Origin: a virus
Length of the DNA stretch: 64,000 bases
Direction: 5' to 3' (one strand)
Virus record (IMG/VR): IMGVR_UViG_3300013132_000023
Coordinates: 73,178-137,177 of that record
The notes under the pieces were generated by a model. The model saw only the letters and a program-made list of their open reading frames with translations. It made no database searches and was not told where the DNA came from. Of the stretch, positions 4,708 through 64,000 are shown piece after piece. The translations under genes and the position numbers were made by a program. Each line of letters opens with the position of its first letter. Position 1 is the stretch's first letter.

Positions 4708-5525
4708 AGCTACTCGATTTTCGTTCAAACTATACTAGTCAATGTGGACAAGATGGTGTCTTGGCCAAGGTGTTTGATGTTCTAGGTATTCGTTCTGGAT
4801 ACTGTGTTGAGTTTGGAGCCTGGGACGGACTATATCTTTCTAACACAAGACAATGGTTACAGAGTCCGCAATTCTCTGGCTGTCTCATTGAGGGCGACCA
4901 TGTTCGGTTTCAAGCACTCAAAAAGCTTTACGGTACACGAACAGACGTGCATACCATTAATACGTTTGTAAGTATTGATGGTGAGAATTCGTTAGATAGT
5001 ATTTTGCAACGCGTTGGGGCACCAGTTGACTTTGATTTGTTGTCAATTGATATCGATTGCGACGACTATCATATTTGGAGTTCGCTGCAACATTTTAAGC
5101 CTAAGTTAGTTCTTATTGAAACAAATCCGTACATTCCATTTTACGTTGAGTATGTTCAAAAGAAGAACCTAGGTCGTTATCCAATTGGGGCAAGCGTTGT
5201 TAGCATGTACAAGTTGGCCATTGCTAAAGGGTATCAGCCTATTTGTTACATTGGACACGACTGGTTGTGTTTACGCAAAGATCTACTACCTGCGTTTGAT
5301 CTTGATACTATGGCTTGTATTCCAATGTTTTTAGCCGGATCAGATGTTCGCAACAACGATCTCATGGCTCATGGAAACATTATTCCGTTGCCTACTGGTC
5401 CAGCAAGTGAGCGGCAAGTCAATATCAACGATATCGTTTATCGTGGTATTGCACCATCCTTTGAAGAGTTCGCACAAGAATTTCGAGTTTTGACTTCACC
5501 GAGTGATTTTGCCAGTCTCCTTTAA
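4704..5525 (+). CDS. FkbM-like methyltransferase
   Basis: SQCGQDG, VEFGAWDG..LSNT, FDLLSIDID..DY, PKLVLIE.N. Confidence 0.75.
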   Translation: MKLLDFRSNYTSQCGQDGVLAKVFDVLGIRSGYCVEFGAWDGLYLSNTRQWLQSPQFSGCLIEGDHVRFQALKKLYGTRTDVHTINTFVSIDGENSLDSILQRVGAPVDFDLLSIDIDCDDYHIWSSLQHFKPKLVLIETNPYIPFYVEYVQKKNLGRYPIGASVVSMYKLAIAKGYQPICYIGHDWLCLRKDLLPAFDLDTMACIPMFLAGSDVRNNDLMAHGNIIPLPTGPASERQVNINDIVYRGIAPSFEEFAQEFRVLTSPSDFASLL

Positions 5526-10899: not shown

Positions 10900-12128
10900 T
10901 GGCTCAACATAGCAACTATTGGTTCGGTACGTGTCCAACGAGACATCTAGTTACCGCAGGGCTGGTTCGTAACGTTGATGTTTTAATCATAGGTGGTGGT
11001 ATAGCTGGCGTAAGCGTACTCTATCAACTATTACAAGCTGGCATTACTAACGCATATCTTGTAGAAGATTCGACCATTGCCTTTCATGCGTCTGGTCGTA
11101 GCAGTGGTCAGCTAATGATGCGTGGAGCTAAGCTGTTCTCGCAAATGCTTAAGGAAGAAGGACTTGAGTACTTGCAGTTCATGCTAGACAACAATAAACG
11201 CTTTCTTAGTGGTTTGCGTAACGTATCTTTTGATACCGATCTTCGTGATACTGGTGGTTTGCGTTTAGCTGTGTCTGAAAAGGAATTCGACCTTTTAAAA
11301 GAAGAGGCCGATTTTTTGAACACGCACGCCAACATTAGTTGTCCTGTACTTACGTCAGATCAAATACAGGGTTTATTACCTAACACGAATTGTATCGGTG
11401 GTATCTATGTACCTATAGAAGCAACCTTTAATCCGTACAAGGTTGTAAACGGGATGCGTGAGTTTATTGAACGCAAAGGACCGAGAGTCCTTACAGATTG
11501 CCAAGTTACGAACGTCGTTCGAACTGACGATGATAGTTTCAGTGTTTCAATTCGACACAAAGGAACTATCAAGGCCAAGAAGATAGTGTATTGTACGAAC
11601 GCATATACACCAGAACTTGTACCAGAACTATCTCGGACCATGATTGGTTTTCGTGGACAGATGGTTGCAACAGATTTCATTCCCGAAGAATTGTTGCAAG
11701 CACTTCCTCAGTCTAGTGTCTCTTGTAATGACTGTAATGAGTATTGGCGTCTTCATAGCGGACGCTTACTTGTTGGCGGCATGAGACACGCTGTTCGCGG
11801 TAATCAGTTTAACATTCTAGAAGATGGCGAGGTCAGTCCTGCTGTTTATGACAGGTTGCGTGATTTTGTAAATCGCACGCTGCCTATTGTCAAAGACGTA
11901 AAGTTTACGCACACTTGGTCTGGTATCATGTGTGCTACGCCAGATCAAATGCCGCTTATTGGTGTGTTGCCAAATCGACCAGATGAATACATTTTTGGTG
12001 GTTTTAATGGATACGGTTTTGGGCACGCATTACAGGGCAGCGTCATTATCAAAGACTTTATCACCCAAGGTGAGTCTTCGTGTGCTGGCGTAAGTTTGTT
12101 TAATCCTGCTCGATTCACGGAGAATTAA
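10899..12128 (+). CDS. FAD-dependent oxidoreductase (DAO/PuuB-like)
   Basis: DVLIIGGGIAG, ASGRSSG, CTNAY, WSGIM..TPDQMPLIG, GFNGYG. Confidence 0.88.
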   Translation: MAQHSNYWFGTCPTRHLVTAGLVRNVDVLIIGGGIAGVSVLYQLLQAGITNAYLVEDSTIAFHASGRSSGQLMMRGAKLFSQMLKEEGLEYLQFMLDNNKRFLSGLRNVSFDTDLRDTGGLRLAVSEKEFDLLKEEADFLNTHANISCPVLTSDQIQGLLPNTNCIGGIYVPIEATFNPYKVVNGMREFIERKGPRVLTDCQVTNVVRTDDDSFSVSIRHKGTIKAKKIVYCTNAYTPELVPELSRTMIGFRGQMVATDFIPEELLQALPQSSVSCNDCNEYWRLHSGRLLVGGMRHAVRGNQFNILEDGEVSPAVYDRLRDFVNRTLPIVKDVKFTHTWSGIMCATPDQMPLIGVLPNRPDEYIFGGFNGYGFGHALQGSVIIKDFITQGESSCAGVSLFNPARFTEN

Positions 12129-16724: not shown

Positions 16725-16761
16725 CACTAGGAGGGCATCCCTTGAGGGTGCCCTCCTAGTG
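16725..16761 (+). terminator. Long GC-rich hairpin after thyX
   Basis: CACTAGGAGGGCATCC...GGGTGCCCTCCTAGTG inverted repeat; weak U-tract. Confidence 0.65.
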
Positions 16762-16824
16762 TATTATTGAGACGTAGGGGCGTTGCCCTTGTTATGTTTT
16801 AAGTCTCTATTTGGAGGTAAGGCT

Positions 16825-29391: not shown

Positions 29392-29593
29392 AACGCTTTC
29401 TTTGTCCACCTGTAGTACGATTCTCTTGTTGTTTGCACGAAGTGCAAGATGCTACCTTACGAACAACAATAGTAACTTCGTCTGGCAACTCATGTTCGTC
29501 TCCTGGAAGAAGAGTTACTCTTTGGCTTCCGCCAAAATAACTTCCGCCGCAACGACGACATTCAATCAACACGACTGTCTTAGGCGTTTTCAT
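29381..29593 (-). CDS. Small Zn-ribbon protein
   Basis: CRRC and CTSC. Confidence 0.55.
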   Translation of the reverse strand: MKTPKTVVLIECRRCGGSYFGGSQRVTLLPGDEHELPDEVTIVVRKVASCTSCKQQENRTTGGQRKRYDR

Positions 29594-30092
29594 GATTCAA
29601 ACGAAGAGTCAACAAGTTTAGTAGCTTTTTTATTCTGATAGCAACAGTGCCGTGTGATATTTTTTGTTCACTAGCAATCTGCCTCAAAGACTTGCCACGT
29701 ACAAAGTGTTCGACCAACAAGTGAGCGTGCTTTTGATCAGACGTATGTTTCATAATGACTTCCATTATGTCTCGATCTTCGCCCGTGTCGCCTTTATAGC
29801 AGATATCTAAAAGCTTTGATTCGTCTTCTAATTGACTTAGACTTCTCTTGGTACGTCTAGCAATGTAACGCATCAAGTGTCCACGAATGTAATGATATGC
29901 AAAAGTAACAATCGAAGCCTTACTTGGATCGTATCTTTCGCATGCGAGCAATAAAGCAATCCAGGCTTCTTGCTGCAAATCCTGTGGAGCAATGAGGGCG
30001 TCTTTTCTGCAAAACTTGTACATTGGCTTGAGGATGCTAATGATCAGTGCATCCCACTCGTTTTTTTTCAAACTATCAATCGGTTTGTTCAT
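29580..30092 (-). CDS. Sigma70-family phage sigma factor
   Basis: DLQQEAWIALL.A.ERYDPSK....TFAY..IRG (region 2); KSLRQIA...ISHGTV (region 4). Confidence 0.85.
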   Translation of the reverse strand: MNKPIDSLKKNEWDALIISILKPMYKFCRKDALIAPQDLQQEAWIALLLACERYDPSKASIVTFAYHYIRGHLMRYIARRTKRSLSQLEDESKLLDICYKGDTGEDRDIMEVIMKHTSDQKHAHLLVEHFVRGKSLRQIASEQKISHGTVAIRIKKLLNLLTLRLNHENA

Positions 30093-30468
30093 GTGCTTTG
30101 ATTTGTGCAATTAGCATTTCAATGTAAAGATTCTTCTCGTCGGCATTTAGAGCACCCCAATTTAGGACAATACTAGAATGCCCACCATCTGGAATTTCAT
30201 CGCCGCCACTAGTGCGTTGCTTATGACGATACAGTACGCGTCCTTCTTTGTCTTGTACTATTAGCGTAGTGACATGTAGTTTCTTGTCTTCCGCAAGAGA
30301 CCAGAAGAATGTCATGAAGTCTTTAAACTTGACGACTGCCTTTTTGGCTTTGCCGCTTGTCAGAATAAGCACAAATATGATGTCTGTTTGTTCGCTAATA
30401 CCACTATGCTGAACAAGATCTTGATATGCGACACGGAGTTTTTCCCAATCTACATTTAAGGACATCAC
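30076..30468 (-). CDS. Hypothetical protein
   Basis: AGGAGG RBS. Confidence 0.65.
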   Translation of the reverse strand: MMSLNVDWEKLRVAYQDLVQHSGISEQTDIIFVLILTSGKAKKAVVKFKDFMTFFWSLAEDKKLHVTTLIVQDKEGRVLYRHKQRTSGGDEIPDGGHSSIVLNWGALNADEKNLYIEMLIAQIKAHEQTD

Positions 30469-35069: not shown

Positions 35070-35227
35070 GCCTGCTTCCTCAAAAATCCCAGAAGTATCC
35101 GGATATTCCTATTAATAACCACCCAATATAGCTCTTACGATCTCGATCCCCTCAGAAATGTGGGGAGTGCGAAACGCACAAGATTCGCGTACAAACGCAT
35201 GTTCATGGCAATTACCTTCATCTTCCA

Positions 35228-55435: not shown

Positions 55436-55671
55436 GTTTGAATTACCGATTCTTGTCCACATTGCCAAAGAGTAACCATTAAAGGCATACTCTTTGGATT
55501 ATTGCATTTCCAGCGAGCTATAGCATTGTTCGTATTTTCGTTATTGAATAGCGAAATCATATCAAATCTACCGCGACATTTAGAATCTCTTAGGGTTGTA
55601 AGTTGAATAATGGCGTGATTATCGTGATAATAACCACGCTCATGATAAATACAAAGAGTACCAGTAATCAT
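55432..55671 (-). CDS. Hypothetical protein
   Basis: Coupled on both sides. Confidence 0.45.
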   Translation of the reverse strand: MITGTLCIYHERGYYHDNHAIIQLTTLRDSKCRGRFDMISLFNNENTNNAIARWKCNNPKSMPLMVTLWQCGQESVIQT

Positions 55672-56060
55672 GACTCAGAAATGAACCTAGGATCGTAAAG
55701 TTGTTCTACAAGACTCGTAAACGGAATGCGTTCAGCCACAAGGCCAACCTTTTCCAGCTTACACTTCATGTTTAATGCAGCGGGTGCATTCAATGAGTGA
55801 ATGATAATTTGACTTGAAAGGTTTGCGTTATTACAAATCCAACGCACAACTTCACTGCCAGTGTTCTTGTCTTCTATCGCAACGAACGCTTCGCCTCCCA
55901 GGTCGTGATCCAGAAAGATGATGTCGAATACGTTTTCCTGCAATGCTTTGATAGCATCGGCGGCCTCGGTAGTCACGACGAGATCGTGTTGGCCGAGAGT
56001 AGAGCGAAACGTTTCAATCCTCTTAGGATCGTCTTCGAGTACAAGGATCTTGATGGTCAT
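55668..56060 (-). CDS. Stand-alone receiver domain (cyclic-phosphate-processing type)
   Basis: ILVLEDD..R, IFLDHDLG, TG.EV..W, IHS.N. Confidence 0.75.
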   Translation of the reverse strand: MTIKILVLEDDPKRIETFRSTLGQHDLVVTTEAADAIKALQENVFDIIFLDHDLGGEAFVAIEDKNTGSEVVRWICNNANLSSQIIIHSLNAPAALNMKCKLEKVGLVAERIPFTSLVEQLYDPRFISES

Positions 56061-58479: not shown

Positions 58480-58842
58480 TTATTCTCTCTGAGGGTTTGT
58501 TAAATCGTAATAGTACAGAACTTCTCCAGTTTCAAGATTAACCCAACCCCACTTAAGAAGGTCAAGATCTCCTGTTGTCTTTAGCCACGTTCCAACACGA
58601 CCATTTGCCGTGGCTGTTACTCGCGTTCCAGGTGGTAGCGTAAACAGAGGAGTCCACGCCCGAGCCCTGTCAATTTCGTAGCGTGACAGAGTGATCGTTT
58701 CCAATTTCCAGCCAAGATGCTCAGCGAGCGTGATTACGTTTTCCACACAGTAAGCGTTGGAAAATACAAGCTTGCCGTCCAGAAACACAAGCCTGTGCTC
58801 GTGCTCGTTGCAATTGTAGATAACCAGTTTTTGTTGTTCCAT
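58480..58842 (-). CDS. Hypothetical protein
   Basis: Immediately behind TTGACA..TATACT promoter. Confidence 0.6.
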   Translation of the reverse strand: MEQQKLVIYNCNEHEHRLVFLDGKLVFSNAYCVENVITLAEHLGWKLETITLSRYEIDRARAWTPLFTLPPGTRVTATANGRVGTWLKTTGDLDLLKWGWVNLETGEVLYYYDLTNPQRE

Positions 58843-58959
58843 GATCTTAGTATATCCTGTAATTGGTCGTTGTCAAGGTTATTCTTTTGTAAGCCAAGTA
58901 AGATATGCTGCATTTAAAGCTTCACGCAAATGCCGTTTTTTCTTGGTGTTTATGCCTTG

Positions 58960-59124
58960 TTAGTTCTTATCCTTTTCAAGCCATTCCACGGTCATGTCAG
59001 GATCTCTATCTCTCTTACGAGAGATAAACCGACAAGCCTGATCTTGATTCTTGAAGGGACCAGCGATAGGCGTACCGTCATATAGGACGTACCAACCAGA
59101 CTGCTTGATGAATTCAATGCTCAT
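58960..59124 (-). CDS. Small hypothetical protein (54 aa)
   Basis: MSIEFIKQSGWYV...AGPFKNQDQA. Confidence 0.5.
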   Translation of the reverse strand: MSIEFIKQSGWYVLYDGTPIAGPFKNQDQACRFISRKRDRDPDMTVEWLEKDKN

Positions 59125-59212
59125 TTTAACTCGTTGCTTCGTTTATCCAGGTAGTTAGTTTTTGCTACAGCCACGCACACACGGTGAAGTATACCCTAAC
59201 GTCGCCGCCCCG

Positions 59213-59368
59213 TCAACTCGACGACGCCAGTCGCCACAAATAAATGCTAAACGCCCCAATAGACGCAAAAAGCAGCAACCTGACGACCCACATGGCAATA
59301 GTAAGGGCGAAACGAAAGCTTCTAGGATTTTCCCAGGCTTCTATGGTATCTCTATGGTGAGTTTTCAT
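59213..59368 (-). CDS. Small membrane protein (51 aa) spanning the left inverted repeat
   Basis: MKTHHRDTIEAWENPRSFRFALTIAMWVVRLLLFASIGAFSIYLWRLASSS. Confidence 0.45.
   Translation of the reverse strand: MKTHHRDTIEAWENPRSFRFALTIAMWVVRLLLFASIGAFSIYLWRLASSS
59300..59335 (-). repeat. 36-bp inverted repeat, left copy
   Basis: Reverse complement TGGGAAAATCCTAGAAGCTTTCGTTTCGCCCTTACT is identical to 60416-60451. Confidence 0.93.
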
Positions 59369-59386
59369 GATGGGCTTGAAAAAGAC

Positions 59387-59674
59387 TTAAGTACGAACCC
59401 GGTAAGTAAGATGGCCGTCTTCCCAAATGGCTTCAATTAGCCCCTTCTCACACATAGAATCTAGCGTCTGCTGCAACTTGGAAGAAGAACACCGCTGGCG
59501 GAACTCGTCCTCGGTAGTTTCTTCTCCCACTTTATAGCTGTTCATGGCCACGCCAAGAGCCCACTCAGAGATGTGGGCATCGTTGTCTTCGTTGTAGGGC
59601 TCTTGAGTGAAGGCATCGATATCCTTGCGGGCCGTGGTTAGGTTGGTATGCTCTAAAATGACAAGCTTCTTCAT
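59387..59674 (-). CDS. Hypothetical protein (wHTH-like C-terminus)
   Basis: LQQTLDSMCEKGLIEA.W; own promoter. Confidence 0.6.
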   Translation of the reverse strand: MKKLVILEHTNLTTARKDIDAFTQEPYNEDNDAHISEWALGVAMNSYKVGEETTEDEFRQRCSSSKLQQTLDSMCEKGLIEAIWEDGHLTYRVRT

Positions 59675-59760
59675 GTTCCTATTGTATCATGAGGATTTTC
59701 TCTGTCAAGCTGAAAAAAGAACTTGACACACCCAAGCTCTTAGGGTACTATGATGGTGCC

Positions 59761-59876
59761 ATCGTCGGTTGACAGCAGGGAGAGTCTCGCACGCTCCCAA
59801 ACGAGATCAAATGAAACAAGTAGCGGGCTTGTCATACTCCACGGTAAAGTTTGGTCTTACCCTGCTTTTTACAGCC
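59761..59876 (+). ncRNA. Candidate small RNA with own promoter
   Basis: TTGACA-17-TACTAT upstream; AGCAGGG/CCCTGCT closing helix; no ORF. Confidence 0.45.
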
Positions 59877-59928
59877 TAATGGCGAATTTCGCTTGACAAC
59901 GCTTGAAAACATAGTACAATGAACACAT

Positions 59929-60007
59929 AGCGGGGTAGAGGAGTCTGGCCGTCCTCGTGATCCTCATAAGATCGAGACCGTGGGTTCGAATCCCACCCCC
60001 GCCACCA
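59929..60007 (+). tRNA. tRNA-Met(CAT), initiator-like
   Basis: A1:C72 mismatch, loop CTCATAA, ACCA; TTGACA..TACAAT promoter upstream. Confidence 0.88.
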
Positions 60008-60162
60008 AATACACCATTCCTTCCCAATGAGCCCGACAGGAATGGTGTGTCAAAAGGGGTTATGCTGTAAAAAAAGAGTGAACAACGCCGTGAATTGACA
60101 GCAGGAACGACGGACAAAATCACAGCCACGCCAGACGTGGAAGCGGTAACTAGAGACTGATC

Positions 60163-60221
60163 GCACCCCTTCGAGCCAGGAGATTCTGGGAACACCCGGT
60201 GTCTCCTGGTTCTTCTTTTTT
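60163..60221 (+). terminator. Hairpin + U-tract
   Basis: GAGCCAGGAGA...TCTCCTGGTTC followed by TTCTTTTTT. Confidence 0.55.
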
Positions 60222-60223
60222 AG

Positions 60224-60298
60224 GCCCGCGTAGTATAGTGGCTATTATTCGTTCTTGGTAAGAACGAGATGGGGGTTCGATTCCCTCCGTAGGCTCCA
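60224..60298 (+). tRNA. tRNA-Thr(GGT)
   Basis: CGTTC-TTGGTAA-GAACG; TCCA. Confidence 0.88.
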
Positions 60299-60299
60299 C

Positions 60300-60496
60300 A
60301 AAATCCTGGAAGCATGGGGTATGCCCTTACTTGTGTTTCAAGCTGCTTGAAAACAGCATGGGGGGTAGTTTCCCAAAATCCTAGAAGTGCAGACTTTTCC
60401 CTTACTGCACCCGATTGGGAAAATCCTAGAAGCTTTCGTTTCGCCCTTACTGCGGCGGCCCCCACAATTCTAGGAGTTCACCGCGAGCCCTTACTG
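60300..60496 (+). repeat. Bipartite repeat array AAAATCCTAGAAG-N11-CCCTTACT x4
   Basis: Copies start at 60300, 60375, 60420, 60464; spacer exactly 11 nt and variable. Confidence 0.88.
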
Positions 60497-60946
60497 TACC
60501 CCCAGGGGGTCCAGGGGCCGGGGCAGGCCCCCGGAGGGGCGGCCCGCCGCTCAAGGCGGCTACTCGGGACCGGGTGGGCCGACCCCCGGTCGCGGATACT
60601 CCCGAACCAACACCATCCTAGTTTCCTAGGAAGCTTCGGGGCGTTCGCAATGCTGACTACAGTATATCCCTTGAAAAGGGATAGTCAACCAAAAAGTGGA
60701 TTTTTGCTTCCCTGACTTTCGCCTAATCCAGTCAGTGTTAGTTTTTGGGCGAGTTGTTTTTGCCTCTCGGCATTCGTAACTCTTTGATCGACGATACATT
60801 ATACTATAGGGACGCGACTTGTCAAGGACAATCCTGATTTTCTTTTTCGAGCTTTTCCCTTGCCTATTCGAATCGAAGGGCTATACTTGTGACGAGTTTA
60901 CTAAAACCCGCCCCCAAGGGGGCATAACCAACAAGAAAGAGAAAAC

Positions 60947-61165
60947 ATGTCGAACGCAACTGCTAATCGTGGCCCTGGTCGTCCTGCTAACTTCCCTGGC
61001 GTCGAGGTCGTGTCTTTCCTGGCAAAGATCCCCGTCGAAACCAAGGAAATGGTTTCCACGCTGGCCGAACAGCGTGGCGAGACCATCGGCGTTACCTTGG
61101 ACGCCATGATTCGTCGGGCTTTCAAGGAAGCCACCCGCCAGCGTGGTGCGAAGTCGGATAGCTGA
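60947..61165 (+). CDS. Small DNA-binding protein (AT-hook + RHH-like)
   Basis: RGPGRP then beta-helix-helix; strong promoter and downstream hairpin terminator. Confidence 0.6.
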   Translation: MSNATANRGPGRPANFPGVEVVSFLAKIPVETKEMVSTLAEQRGETIGVTLDAMIRRAFKEATRQRGAKSDS

Positions 61166-61310
61166 GCTATCCACAAGCGTCGGTTCCTTAGGGGCCGCTC
61201 CAATCGGGGGCGGCCCCTGTTTTTTCAGAATTCTGTTTGCCTCTCTACGATTGCAGGCTATACTTGTGGCGAACCGGGGGAACGTCCCCCACAACAAGAA
61301 AGACAACAAC

Positions 61311-62336
61311 ATGAGCAAAGCTACGATCACTGGTTTTTTCAATCCCCGCACGGCGGGCGATACCTTCAAGGGTCTCAATGGCTCCATCGATGGGGCGGTT
61401 GCGGAAAGCATCATTCCGGATCTTCCGACCTTCCTGCAAAAGGCTGGTCGCGACTACTACATTCAGAAGGCTCCTGTTTTCCAGCGGTTCGACGGCGAAT
61501 TCGCGGAAGTCGAAAACCAATACCATCTCGTTCGCTCGAACGATCAGCGTGTGGTCAGTCCGCATACCGTCACTGGCCAATACGCTCCGCTCTCCCTCGT
61601 GGATATCGCGGAAGAACTCCAGCCCTGGTGTGACGCGGGCTGGTGTACGCCCGATGGCGTCTACAGCGGGCGGAACGAGTCGCTTGAAATCCTTAGCCTT
61701 CGCTTGGACGCTGGTGACGTGGAATTGGCAGAAAACGAGCGGTTCATGCACTACATCGTTTTCCAGAATCCCCACGGTAGCGGCGGCATGGCCAAGGGCA
61801 AGATCATTTCGTGGCGAATTGTGTGTGCGAACACGTTCGCGGCGGCGGTTTCTGCCTCGGCTGACTTCACGATCACGCACCGTGTGGCGAATGGCGACCA
61901 TGACGTGCAGAAGGCTATCATGGCAGGTCGAACCAAGGACGCTATCGCAGCGTGGGAAAAGGCTCGTGGACACATCGCGAAGCTTTCGGATAAGATCAAC
62001 GCATGGCAGTCGGTTCCCCTCCAATTCGCGGACGCCAAGAATCTGACGGATCGTCTCGTGGGTATTACGGATGAAAGCAAGGCGAGCACGCGAGCCAAGA
62101 ACAAGCGTGACGCTATCCTGGCGGCATTCAGCATGCCTCAATTTGGCACCTACGGACGCAACGCCTACGATTGGCTCAATGGCGTTACTTTCGTGAACTC
62201 TTCTCCGCTGGCGGAAGCCAACAAGCGTAGCAAGGTCTCGGGCATCGACCGCACTATCCGCAATCTGGACATGAACGGTTCGGGTTTCGCAGTGGAAAAT
62301 CGTGCCGAGAGTCTTCTCGCGGAGTTGATGGGCTGA
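61311..62336 (+). CDS. DUF932-family phage protein
   Basis: V...Y.P, N.HG.G, RIVCANT, I.H, G.NAYDWLNGVT. Confidence 0.8.
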   Translation: MSKATITGFFNPRTAGDTFKGLNGSIDGAVAESIIPDLPTFLQKAGRDYYIQKAPVFQRFDGEFAEVENQYHLVRSNDQRVVSPHTVTGQYAPLSLVDIAEELQPWCDAGWCTPDGVYSGRNESLEILSLRLDAGDVELAENERFMHYIVFQNPHGSGGMAKGKIISWRIVCANTFAAAVSASADFTITHRVANGDHDVQKAIMAGRTKDAIAAWEKARGHIAKLSDKINAWQSVPLQFADAKNLTDRLVGITDESKASTRAKNKRDAILAAFSMPQFGTYGRNAYDWLNGVTFVNSSPLAEANKRSKVSGIDRTIRNLDMNGSGFAVENRAESLLAELMG

Positions 62337-62345
62337 TGATCCTCG

Positions 62346-62376
62346 TGGGGCGGGGCTTGACTAAGCCCCGCCCCCG
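62346..62376 (+). terminator. GC hairpin overlapping next promoter
   Basis: GGGGCGGGGCTT-gact-AAGCCCCGCCCC. Confidence 0.6.
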
Positions 62377-62644
62377 TGTTATACTCTAACCACGATGGTA
62401 CGAAAATCCATCGGAACCCGCTGGCGAAATGCGGCGTCCGATCCGAACGAGTACCTTCGAGAGACGATCACGTTTTTTTCCGATTGGCTCAAAGCGGCGG
62501 TTGTCTTTTTGTTGGTAATGTTCCTGCTCGCGGTATACGTTGCATTCGTAGACGGCGAGTGATTCTCGGGGGCCGGTTCAACCGGCCCCCATTTTTGTTT
62601 GCTTTTCCAGCGTCGCGTGCTATACTTCGGACAAGGAACAACAC

Positions 62645-62890
62645 ATGACATTCAACGAACTTCTGAAAGCCTTGCTAGCTGTGTGCCCTCAAGGAAGCAT
62701 GGAGCAGGATAACGATGGGCAGCTTGTGTTCTACACTGATTTTTGGATGACCGACGATGGAACCCTGAAAACGCTTCAAGAATGCACCGGGTGCTTCGGA
62801 AGCGGTACCACGGGGGGCGGTCCTCCGGGTTCAGCGAGCCCGTGCGACGTGTGCCACGGCTCGGGCGTGGAGCCCCTGGCCGAAGGCTGA
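62645..62890 (+). CDS. Small protein with DnaJ-type CxxCxGxG motifs
   Basis: CTGCFGSG, CDVCHGSG; AGGA RBS and promoter. Confidence 0.65.
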   Translation: MTFNELLKALLAVCPQGSMEQDNDGQLVFYTDFWMTDDGTLKTLQECTGCFGSGTTGGGPPGSASPCDVCHGSGVEPLAEG

Positions 62891-63118
62891 AAAAGTCTAG
62901 GAGTCTTCGAAAAAACGTTACTAGACGACGACTCCTCCTCCCCCTGCCAGACTGGCAGGGGGAAGAGGTTGCATACGCACAAGTGCGTACGAAGAATCTA
63001 CCCTGGCATGGTAGACCTTTCCACCGTGCGAAGCCTACCCTGCCAATCGGCACAAGTCAAGGAAAAAGAAAAAAGAAAATTCTCTTGCCTTTTCTAGGCA
63101 ATAGGCTATAATTGGACC

Positions 63119-63754
63119 ATGAAGGTACTCGAACTCGAAACAAGCGTGGGCGGATTGTCCAAGCCCTCCAAAATGCCCGGTTTCTCCTACGGTATCCCTG
63201 CTAGGGAATGCAAGGTAGGCGGAATGCTTCGCAATATCAAGGGTAGCGTATGCTCGAAATGCTACGCCCGAAAGGGTATGTACGTTTTTCGTAAGGTGCA
63301 AGCGGCCCAATACCGTCGGCTGCAAATTCTTTCGGCCAACCTTTCGACGTGGGCGGAAAATATGACCGCCTTGTTGGTTCGCAAGTATGCCAAGCGTGAA
63401 AAGGTTTTCCGCTGGCACGATAGCGGGGATCTTCAATCGGCGGAACATCTTTCCGCCATCGTCCAGATTGCGAAGAATCTTCCCGACTTCGCATTCTGGC
63501 TCCCCACGAAGGAATACGCACTTGTGCGTAGCTGGGTCCGCGAGAACGGCGAATTTCCTACCAATCTCACGGTACGGATTTCCGCCCCGATGATCGGACG
63601 CGAAAGTCTTCCGAACATTCCGGGCACTGTTTCGAGCACGGTAGGCAACGCGGAAGGCTTCCAGTGCGAAGCCTACTCACGAGAGGGTAAGTGTGGGCCT
63701 TGTCGAGCGTGCTGGAAGCGTGACGTTCCTAACGTCAACTATTCGCAGCACTAG
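63119..63754 (+). CDS. gp88-like phage protein
   Basis: LSKPSKMPG, C..CYA.KG, FRWHDSGD, WLPTKE, N..VR.S, C..CRACW. Confidence 0.82.
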   Translation: MKVLELETSVGGLSKPSKMPGFSYGIPARECKVGGMLRNIKGSVCSKCYARKGMYVFRKVQAAQYRRLQILSANLSTWAENMTALLVRKYAKREKVFRWHDSGDLQSAEHLSAIVQIAKNLPDFAFWLPTKEYALVRSWVRENGEFPTNLTVRISAPMIGRESLPNIPGTVSSTVGNAEGFQCEAYSREGKCGPCRACWKRDVPNVNYSQH

Positions 63755-63763
63755 ATAGGCTAC

Positions 63764-63798
63764 GCCCCCAACTGTAGCGAGCCGCTATAGTTGGGGGC
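63764..63798. terminator. Hairpin terminator after gp88-like gene
   Basis: GCCCCCAACTGTAGCG-agc-CGCTATAGTTGGGGGC. Confidence 0.65.
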
Positions 63799-64000
63799 TG
63801 CTTCGTTTTCGTAACCATATGTTACGATATCGTAACTTTTCTAAGTAGCTATGGTGGCCCCAGGCCCTCTACCGTGACGCCAAACTATACCACGCCTTCG
63901 CGTGGTGAGCAAGTAGATTCTCGAAATTCTTTTTGCGATATGCTCAATGCTTTTTGCTAATTAGCCACCAGACCGCTTGGGCGGGCCTAGGATCGACGAT

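Follow-up and report, generated by a model that had tools for sequence, protein, structure and literature searches.

The DNA analyzed here (64,000 nucleotides; hereafter "the window") makes up the final 64 kb of one virus contig of 137,177 bp, a phage genome from lake water, and the public runs in which this phage occurs are lake-water and freshwater-sediment metagenomes, none of them listed as RNA. The window carries 26 tRNA genes as well as rIIA and rIIB, and the 137-kb genome encodes a large terminase, a portal protein, a 1,731-aa tape measure protein, a DnaE-type polymerase, a helicase, a primase, RNA ligases, a CCA-adding enzyme and two proteins with sigma-70 region 2. As a DNA search of a phage collection matched tRNAs alone, and as the DNA polymerase showed no more than 34% identity to proteins of the phage collection, the phage has no close cultured relative. 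The locus under study (Table 1) lies between a set of leftward genes, which end at 59674, and rightward genes for an Arc-like protein, a DUF932 protein and a GP88-domain protein. Promoters of the host type are dense here (12 sigma-70-like sites in 58800-61400 as compared to 1.8 expected), and the two minus-strand promoters in Table 1, which read from 60688 to 60661 and from 60825 to 60798, head a long run of leftward host-type promoters. The early leftward block also contains a stand-alone receiver domain (55668-56060, minus strand; cREC_REC, E = 1.9e-16) that adjoins a metallophosphatase.

Table 1. Features of the array locus (positions are those of the window)
Feature	Position	Strand	Remarks
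Unit 5	59300..59331	-	single inverted perfect copy; matrix score 33.3
tRNA-Met(CAT)	59929..60007	+	behind TTGACA-16-TACAAT promoter at 59893
Terminator-like hairpin and T-run	60170..60218	+	closes tRNA-Met transcription unit; read by eye
tRNA-Thr(GGT)	60224..60298	+	from tRNA search
Unit 1	60300..60331	+	AAAATCCTGGAAG-N11-CCCTTACT; matrix score 37.3
Unit 2	60375..60406	+	matrix score 32.2
Unit 3	60420..60451	+	matrix score 28.4
Unit 4	60464..60495	+	degenerate left box ACAATTCTAGGAG, 3 mismatches; matrix score 24.6
GC-rich pseudoknot element	60516..60617		approx. 100 nt; covariation; covariance model 82 bits
Sigma-70-like promoter TTGACT-16-TATACT	60661..60688	-	aimed back at pseudoknot element and array
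Perfect promoter TTGACA-16-TATAAT	60798..60825	-	most upstream leftward early promoter
72-aa protein	60947..61165	+	RGRP-type AT-hook motif and Arc-like ribbon-helix-helix part
DUF932 protein	61308..62336	+	PF06067, E = 3.5e-11; own TTGCCT-16-TATACT promoter
Weak single unit	62891..62922	+	AAAAGTCTAGGAG-N11-ACGTTACT; matrix score 15.6
GP88-domain protein	63119..63754	+	PF17338, E = 2.3e-30

The 72-aa protein is encoded behind its own promoter (TTGCCT-16-TATACT at 60860). Its similarity to Arc is weak in profile comparisons (E = 0.014-0.36), and the RGRP motif, which is invariant, is the most conserved part of the protein. The gene is syntenic with the array in all 13 loci where it was found; in three of the relatives described below (G001, L187 and L189) the small Arc-like gene sits beyond DUF932. 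For the DUF932 protein a confident AlphaFold model was predicted (pLDDT 85.3, pTM 0.83), which had no Foldseek match in the PDB at E ≤ 0.001; a wider structure search gave a best Z of 6.1, below noise, and a search of the ESM Atlas returned DUF932 clusters alone. The idea that it is an actin-like or ParA-like partition protein is thus unsupported by the structure searches, and among the papers listed by a literature search on DUF932 none dealt with its function. The segment with the Arc-like, DUF932 and GP88 genes (60001-64000) has 54% GC, as compared to approx. 44% in the rest of the genome, and the same genes are GC-rich by eye in G001 and G002. Upstream of the array, the approx. 200 non-coding nucleotides from tRNA-Met to the terminator hairpin (60008-60218) are conserved in G003 and G004 (...CAGCC-hairpin-GGAAGCGGT...) and may represent a small RNA; on the minus strand, a U-run comes right behind the inner hairpin of this stretch.

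The array consists of a two-part motif, AAAATCCTRGAAG-N11-CCCTTACT, i.e., a 32-bp unit in which a left box and a right box are separated by 11 nt. The initial annotation had placed four plus-strand copies at 60300, 60375, 60420 and 60464, and these coordinates are exact: a search of the window for the pattern with up to 3 mismatches found 5 matches, against 0.00 expected from 100 shuffles. The inventory was incomplete in that the perfect minus-strand copy at 59300-59331 (unit 5) had been missed. The last three units of the array are indeed 45 and 44 bp apart, the first step being 75 bp; the second gaps, reported as 12 and 11 nt, in fact measure 13 nt (60407-60419) and 12 nt (60452-60463). When the whole 137,177-bp genome was searched loosely, with gaps of 10-12 nt allowed, just five units were found, all with a gap of 11, and CCCTTACT occurs 8 times genome-wide, 5 of these inside units. 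A weight matrix built on 38 units from other phages, with the window left out, gave the five units scores of 24.6-37.3, as compared to a best score per shuffled genome of 9.2-12.0 (n = 5; one of the five shuffled genomes had no score of 8 or more). On this scale the outlying copy at 62891 is weak but above noise (15.6 against a shuffle maximum of 12.0), whereas a further copy proposed at 35083 (9.5) falls within the noise. The genome-wide scan thus leaves five strong copies, all in one region, and a weak one at 62891.

Unit 1 begins one base past tRNA-Thr and has counterparts with a similar spacer in the related loci L184, L171 and L176, and the degenerate left box of unit 4 is kept in L184 and L186. 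The weak unit at 62891 starts immediately past the stop codon of an ORF (62645-62890), 197 nt upstream of the GP88 gene, and is directly followed by a GC-rich hairpin, as is unit 4; singles resembling it occur in L177 (4008) and in G002 (L169 4622, 547). Unit 5 is directed at leftward genes (the 54-aa ORF 58960-59124) and is identical to unit 3, inverted, over 36 nt including the spacer (59296-59331 and 60416-60451). This perfect inverted repeat brackets 1.08 kb with the divergent early promoters, tRNA-Met, tRNA-Thr and units 1-2. Unitigs of four public DNA runs break exactly at the repeat, which is compatible with an inversion or with none; unitig depth is two-fold lower left of 59300, as judged from short unitigs (151-398 nt), and this drop most likely reflects strain bubbles. 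Several host-type promoters share the spacer GCTTGAAAAC(A/G)TAG, and the 75-bp gap of units 1 and 2 holds the palindrome GTTTCAAGC/GCTTGAAAAC, the sites concerned being 59893-59920 and 60332-60360 of the window and, in G001, 4745-4773 and 5324-5352 of L012; this may be an operator (e.g., for the Arc-like protein). An ORF at 60314-60715 runs through the array, and a coding repeat was considered and rejected, as the ORF belongs to no family and unit spacing is not a multiple of 3 across phages.

Relatives of the phage were found by several routes. A search with rIIA (71% identity) led to G001, a 148-kb IMG/VR genome with three units at the same place and two degenerate ones 320 bp beyond, and pattern scans together with DUF932 alignment yielded four more genomes (G002-G005) and 19 metagenome contigs. 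Units were found in 10 of these 19 contigs, and all 10 have them upstream of the DUF932 gene. The closest relative of the window is L184, with a DUF932 protein that is 72% identical. An exact scan of IMG/VR with the window's own left box returned nothing, and looser patterns gave mostly chance single matches, G002 and G003 being recovered among the matches listed. The assemblies of G001 and G003 close into circles, the overlap being 127 bp.

Related arrays were present at 15 loci, with 2-5 units each that are mostly 44-46 bp apart. From these loci we collected 44 candidate units that contained CCTTACT or CGCTTACT plus 5 of 9 left-box positions, with N11 imposed; one doubtful distant site in L182 was removed, leaving 43 units. 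Conservation at the selected positions is inflated by this manner of picking. T29 and A30 are fixed in all 43 units; position 34 is T in 25 of the 43 and position 33 is never C, giving TACTAT or TACTGT. Outside the selection, T16 (33/43), A12 (32/43), C or G at position 7 (39/43) and G19 (25/43) are favored and positions 21-23 are T-rich, so that the spacers, described initially as variable, are not freely so. The left box contains TAGAAG, begins with an A-tract and has a degenerate palindrome (TYCTAGRA); read on the opposite strand it resembles a -10 element (TAsrAT), with A9 in 38, T8 in 35, T5 in 31 and A4 in 37 of the 43 units.

Orientation is nearly uniform, as 42 of the 43 units lie on the strand of the DUF932 gene and unit 5 of the window is the exception; the arrays themselves are in every case directed at the Arc-like, DUF932 and GP88 genes. 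Distances between adjacent units (n = 28) were 44-46 bp in 17 cases and 75 bp in three, the remainder being 29, 34, 39, 42, 42, 48, 318 and 4911 bp; the spacing is thus regular without being strict (29-75 bp). By the matrix scan, L182 gained three units with CCCTTACG, L176 a fourth one 75 bp upstream and L189 a second pair, while singles came to light several kb downstream in L177, L182 and G002; the weaker units found in this way (in L169, L176, L177, L182 and L189) are all on the DUF932 strand too. Within each of G001, G002 and G003 all matches with at most one mismatch fall into one cluster; G001 and L189 have two arrays apiece. In the four loci that were read closely (the window, L171, G002 and G003) the array stands directly behind a terminator-like hairpin, and a sigma-70-like promoter on the opposite strand faces the array from within 350 nt in 16 of 17 modules (G003 being the exception), at a distance of 110-340 bp. 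Overall, the array is real, strongly conserved and lineage-specific.

Directly behind unit 4 lies the pseudoknot element, which is 77% GC, and a GC-rich element follows the last unit in every relative. Elements of type 1 (nine sequences, i.e., the window, L184, L171, L176, L177, L178, L186, L174 and L182) share a structure, written from these nine sequences, of three nested helices and one pseudoknot helix. In the alignment of these elements (A2), 86.3% of cells were paired, as compared to 74.2 ± 1.8% in shuffled alignments, and both sides had changed in 12 of 21 pairs, as compared to 5.4 ± 1.5; none of 500 shuffles reached either value. When partners were slid by 1-3 columns, at most 58.1% were paired, a control that is somewhat flattering as the structure was derived from the same sequences. 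Type 2 (G001 twice, L187, L188, L189 and perhaps G002) shares the core ACTsGG-helix-...-helix-GCsGA and, by eye, shows compensatory changes; in L188 and L189b the start of the element, ACTGGG, lies 5-6 nt past the right box (by eye).

In comparisons to Rfam 15, only tRNAs passed a gathering threshold, and the best other match under permissive settings was chrB-b (E = 0.62). A covariance model detected the element once at each locus and nowhere else in 288,523 bases, the whole genome among them, which leaves a nut- or put-like element behind several early promoters unsupported. The functional RNA may come from either strand: there are 6 G-U as compared to 9 A-C cells, the alignment fold is -22.4 on the plus as compared to -17.5 on the minus strand, and 6 of the 9 type 1 elements have, by eye, a UNCG-type loop in their first hairpin when the minus strand is read, a seventh reading UUUG. 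Folding of 60296-60640 as RNA gave no unit-wise structure. As there is no Rfam match and covariation supports the structure, the pseudoknot element is a candidate for a new phage RNA family with a well-defined genomic address.

Two sigma proteins resembling group 3, encoded at 64272-64931 of the genome and on the minus strand at 29580-30110 of the window, are kept in 5 of 5 relatives (43-55% identity), and their best matches among solved structures are RpoH, sigma-H and FliA (E = 0.0026-0.02 for one and 3e-5 for the other). The genome also contains nine exact copies of a 9-mer core, TAGTGTATT, all on the plus strand, and 7 of these 9 lie 26-97 nt before late genes (e.g., 11584-11592 and 16757-16765 of the window, and 16155 of L007). 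The 10-mer TTAGTGTATT occurs in relatives in 27 forward and 4 reverse copies, as compared to 2 for a control, and is enriched and strand-biased in all five. By this analysis, TTAGTGTATT/TAGTGTATT resembles a motif of late promoters such as those of T4 gp55, and, judging from sequence, one of the two phage sigma factors probably reads it. Analysis of k-mers upstream of genes showed enrichment of the late motif only and no third abundant class. The first sigma gene itself has an upstream promoter, TTAACA-16-TATAAT (L010 4232-4259; genome 64232-64259), whose spacer includes GCTTACT and which has AAAAACTAG immediately upstream; the arrangement is unit-like with a spacing 5 nt shorter, and is probably due to chance.

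As two conserved boxes alternate with two less conserved 11-13-nt stretches, in a phage, the array could be viewed as encoding dual-spacer guide RNAs of a TIGR-like kind, which the initial annotation had offered as one option, or of a CRISPR-like kind. This reading we consider extremely improbable, and we conclude that the array is not a guide-RNA array. A CRISPR array has near-identical repeats of 23-50 nt, unique spacers and cas genes; here the conserved parts are just 13 and 8 nt and no cas family was found by Pfam or PHROGs scans of the genome's ORFs, and Cas12a-type or solitary CRISPR repeats are rejected on account of the missing repeat hairpin. The spacers are inherited with point changes: between matching units of the window and L184, 8, 9, 3 and 9 of 11 positions are identical (counted by eye), L176 has the spacer of unit 1, CATGGGGTATG, unchanged, and TGTCAGGTTTT is met again in both L176 and L177. 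One spacer is duplicated verbatim, in units 3 and 5. Searched against the genome of the phage itself, the spacers gave matches at chance level, with 2-5 one-mismatch matches per 11-mer where approx. 2 were expected. The period, 44-46 bp rather than 36, is wrong for a TIGR array, and the absence of box C/D motifs and of a Nop-domain gene, already noted initially, was borne out, as RTGATGA, TGATGA and CTGA occur on neither strand of 60296-60500 and a Pfam scan of 118 ORF translations (17 + 101 of the 163 ORFs called in the 137-kb genome; the other 45 were scanned against PHROGs only) returned no Nop family. According to Faure et al. (2025; PMC12045711), TIGR units give 36-nt RNAs flanked by box C/D motifs and are located beside a Nop-domain Tas protein; a tandem unit in which two conserved parts alternate with two less conserved ones and the occurrence in a phage are alike here, whereas the period, the box C/D motifs and the Nop-domain Tas are all absent. 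As a caution, a phage layout of two repeats and two spacers can mimic a TIGR array, and yet relatives reveal inherited, partly constrained spacers.

Judging from the sequences compared, the boxes are probably special promoters or protein docking sites, and not a guide-RNA array. Tentatively, and with somewhat less than even confidence, we favor tandem promoters that need a phage factor and that would fire against an early promoter, as a sense/antisense timing switch. Each 32-bp unit would be a promoter unusable by the main host sigma factor alone, and the factor needed would most likely be either of the two phage sigma-like proteins or else an activator. With TACTAT as the -10 element, the right box would read CCC-T-TACT(A/G)T and the left box (AAAAT + sTAGmAG) would lie at -40 to -28. 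Two to five such promoters would stand in a row behind the terminator and fire rightwards into the pseudoknot element, while the early promoter on the opposite strand, 110-340 bp off, would fire leftwards through the element into the array. In this face-to-face promoter pair, host polymerase would begin to read leftwards as soon as the phage infects; when the phage factor has been made, polymerases would be loaded at the tandem promoters, leftward transcription would be blocked or collided with, and complementary RNA would be made. The single units (59331 to 59300, and 62891) would bring GP88 and a few other genes under the control of this factor.

What was observed are the boxes, their conservation and orientation, the RNA pairing and the facing promoter; from several features we infer that transcription starts at the units and what kind of factor they need. 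As the array directly follows a terminator-like hairpin, rightward transcripts past it would need a new start. The site behind a terminator, the orientation to transcribed features, the fixed TA that mostly continues as nnAT or nnGT, and, in L188 and L189b, the position 5-6 nt before ACTGGG, which is roughly where a transcript would begin, suggest that the units are promoters, and TACTAT is also the -10 element of the phage's canonical promoter at 59723. As the units have no host-type -35 element and an invariant CCCT plus a TAG-AG box instead, a phage factor would be needed, and since TTAGTGTATT is invariant across the phage group, an invariant box read by a phage sigma factor is plausible. 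The motif is further consistent with promoters in being two-part, with a fixed distance, and in being confined to one region, the genome having five strong copies; unit 5 and the 62891 unit are each directed at downstream genes of their own strand. The GC-rich hairpins right behind unit 4 and the 62891 unit, the two sigma proteins kept in the relatives, the facing promoter in 16 of 17 modules and the covariation of the element in between would also fit. Several observations count against promoters: nothing like TTGACA is found at -35, the 8 invariant bases are more than is usual for a -10 element, T34 is present in 25 of 43 units only, approx. six sites per genome are unusual for a sigma factor, and the folded RNA may come from either strand. 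Units 29-48 bp apart would make simultaneous occupancy of all of them by polymerase impossible, and the lack of a facing promoter in G003 counts against convergent promoters. Moreover, as the left box is also -10-like on the other strand, promoter-likeness by eye is weak evidence. Promoter or binding motifs of sigma-54, DnaA, IHF, NtcA and the Bacteroidota type did not fit by eye, and a literature search for CCCTTACT as a promoter gave unrelated eukaryotic work among the matches listed.

The units could instead be docking sites for a phage DNA-binding protein and not promoters, for which the neighboring AT-hook and Arc-like protein is the obvious candidate; we consider this rather unlikely, though it is the main rival. 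Bound protein might act as a polar roadblock or insulator, so that the leftward early transcript would halt past the folded RNA and spare the tRNA genes, or the units might be an operator or enhancer array. Several features would suit such a role, i.e., the synteny of the Arc-like gene with the array in 13 loci, the RGRP motif as the most conserved part of the protein together with a left box that opens with an A-tract, boxes roughly every 20-24 bp, a host-type promoter that reads into the array in 16 of 17 modules, and an invariant 8-mer as expected of a sequence-specific binder. The operator half-site of P22 Arc reads TAGAAG, which is found, along with the degenerate palindrome, in the left box. 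On the other hand, the array lies approx. 370 bp upstream of the promoter of the Arc-like gene (60860), whereas typical ribbon-helix-helix operators overlap the promoter of their cognate gene. Neither box is a repeat of the other, the similarity to Arc is weak and the small gene is displaced beyond DUF932 in three relatives; docking would also not require the strict co-orientation with downstream genes that even the singles show.

The initial annotation had alternatively proposed helically phased protein sites (terminase, origin or recombinase) at a genome end or origin. A protein site on DNA is broadly right in kind, whereas the assignments to a terminase site, an origin or a genome end are weakened by single units that lie kilobases away between genes of the same operon, by the double arrays of G001 and L189 and by the GC-rich flanks. 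We hold it improbable that the array is an origin or packaging signal, with iterons for an initiator or small terminase subunit and with activation by transcripts that the facing promoter would send into it. Direct repeats in tandem, most often 44-46 bp apart (17/28), essentially one cluster per genome and strong promoters reading into the array would fit, and the layout is similar to that of the T7 primary origin, which has tandem promoters, and of lambda cosB, which has three R sites. Nevertheless, the array lacks an AT-rich unwinding region and abuts the GC-rich pseudoknot element, the terminase gene is approx. 17.8 kb off round the contig end and the replication genes approx. 70 kb off, and Pfam and PHROGs scans showed no initiator families among the neighboring genes. 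The circular assemblies of G001 and G003 likewise argue against a genome end, and no ends were seen here in public contigs, the unitigs breaking at the inverted repeat. A still slimmer chance is given to the units acting as RNA within the leftward early transcript (AGUAAGGG-N11-CUKCUAsrAUUUU), e.g., as repeated binding or processing sites behind a folded 5' domain. The canonical promoter for that strand in nearly all modules and the UNCG-type loops on it are consistent with this; however, the units showed neither a hairpin nor covariation of their own, and on this reading unit 5 and the 62891 unit would run antisense to the genes next to them and the leftward RNA would be antisense to tRNA-Thr.

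Overall, the array is best filed as a phage-specific promoter or operator array joined to a candidate new structured RNA. If factor-dependent tandem promoters are the correct reading, they would be a third promoter class of a lineage represented by metagenomes only, beside the host-type early promoters and the late motif, and one of the phage's two sigma factors would thereby gain a candidate DNA target. In its boldest form, which we regard as doubtful, a dedicated phage sigma factor would fire the promoter stack head-on against host-driven early transcription and produce a structured antisense RNA, an undescribed timing switch in an uncultivated lineage of large freshwater phages. The structured antisense RNA might also prime replication or act as a regulator in its own right.

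The iterons of plasmids and phages and the R sites of lambda cosB are likewise oriented tandem protein sites with a regular distance, mostly at one locus; here, singles are also found between genes at other places, GC-rich sequence surrounds the array, and neither an initiator nor a terminase gene adjoins it. Sigma-32 promoters have the consensus CTTGAAA ... CCCCATnT, and promoters of this group 3 type resemble the units in their two parts and C-rich -10 region, CTAGAAG in the left box recalling CTTGAAA, and in that the phage sigma-like proteins match RpoH, sigma-H and FliA best, whereas the gap here is 1-3 nt shorter and the protein matches are weak. Among switches that combine face-to-face promoters and antisense RNA, P22 immI (with Arc, ant and sar) and RNA I/RNA II of ColE1 are alike in having convergent promoters, here 110-340 bp apart, with a folded RNA between them and, for immI, an Arc-like gene beside; in the present case one side is a stack of 2-5 non-canonical units, and no target gene of an antisense pair is evident. 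The middle promoters of phage T4 combine a MotA box at about -30 with a sigma-70 -10 element. As in T4, a phage box would stand in for the -35 element, its distance to a -10 element of the TAnnnT kind being constant, a phage factor would be needed, and the class would mark a stage after the host-type early promoters; unlike T4, the most invariant part here is at and just upstream of the -10 element (CCCTTACT), and there are approx. six sites per genome, mostly in a tandem stack.
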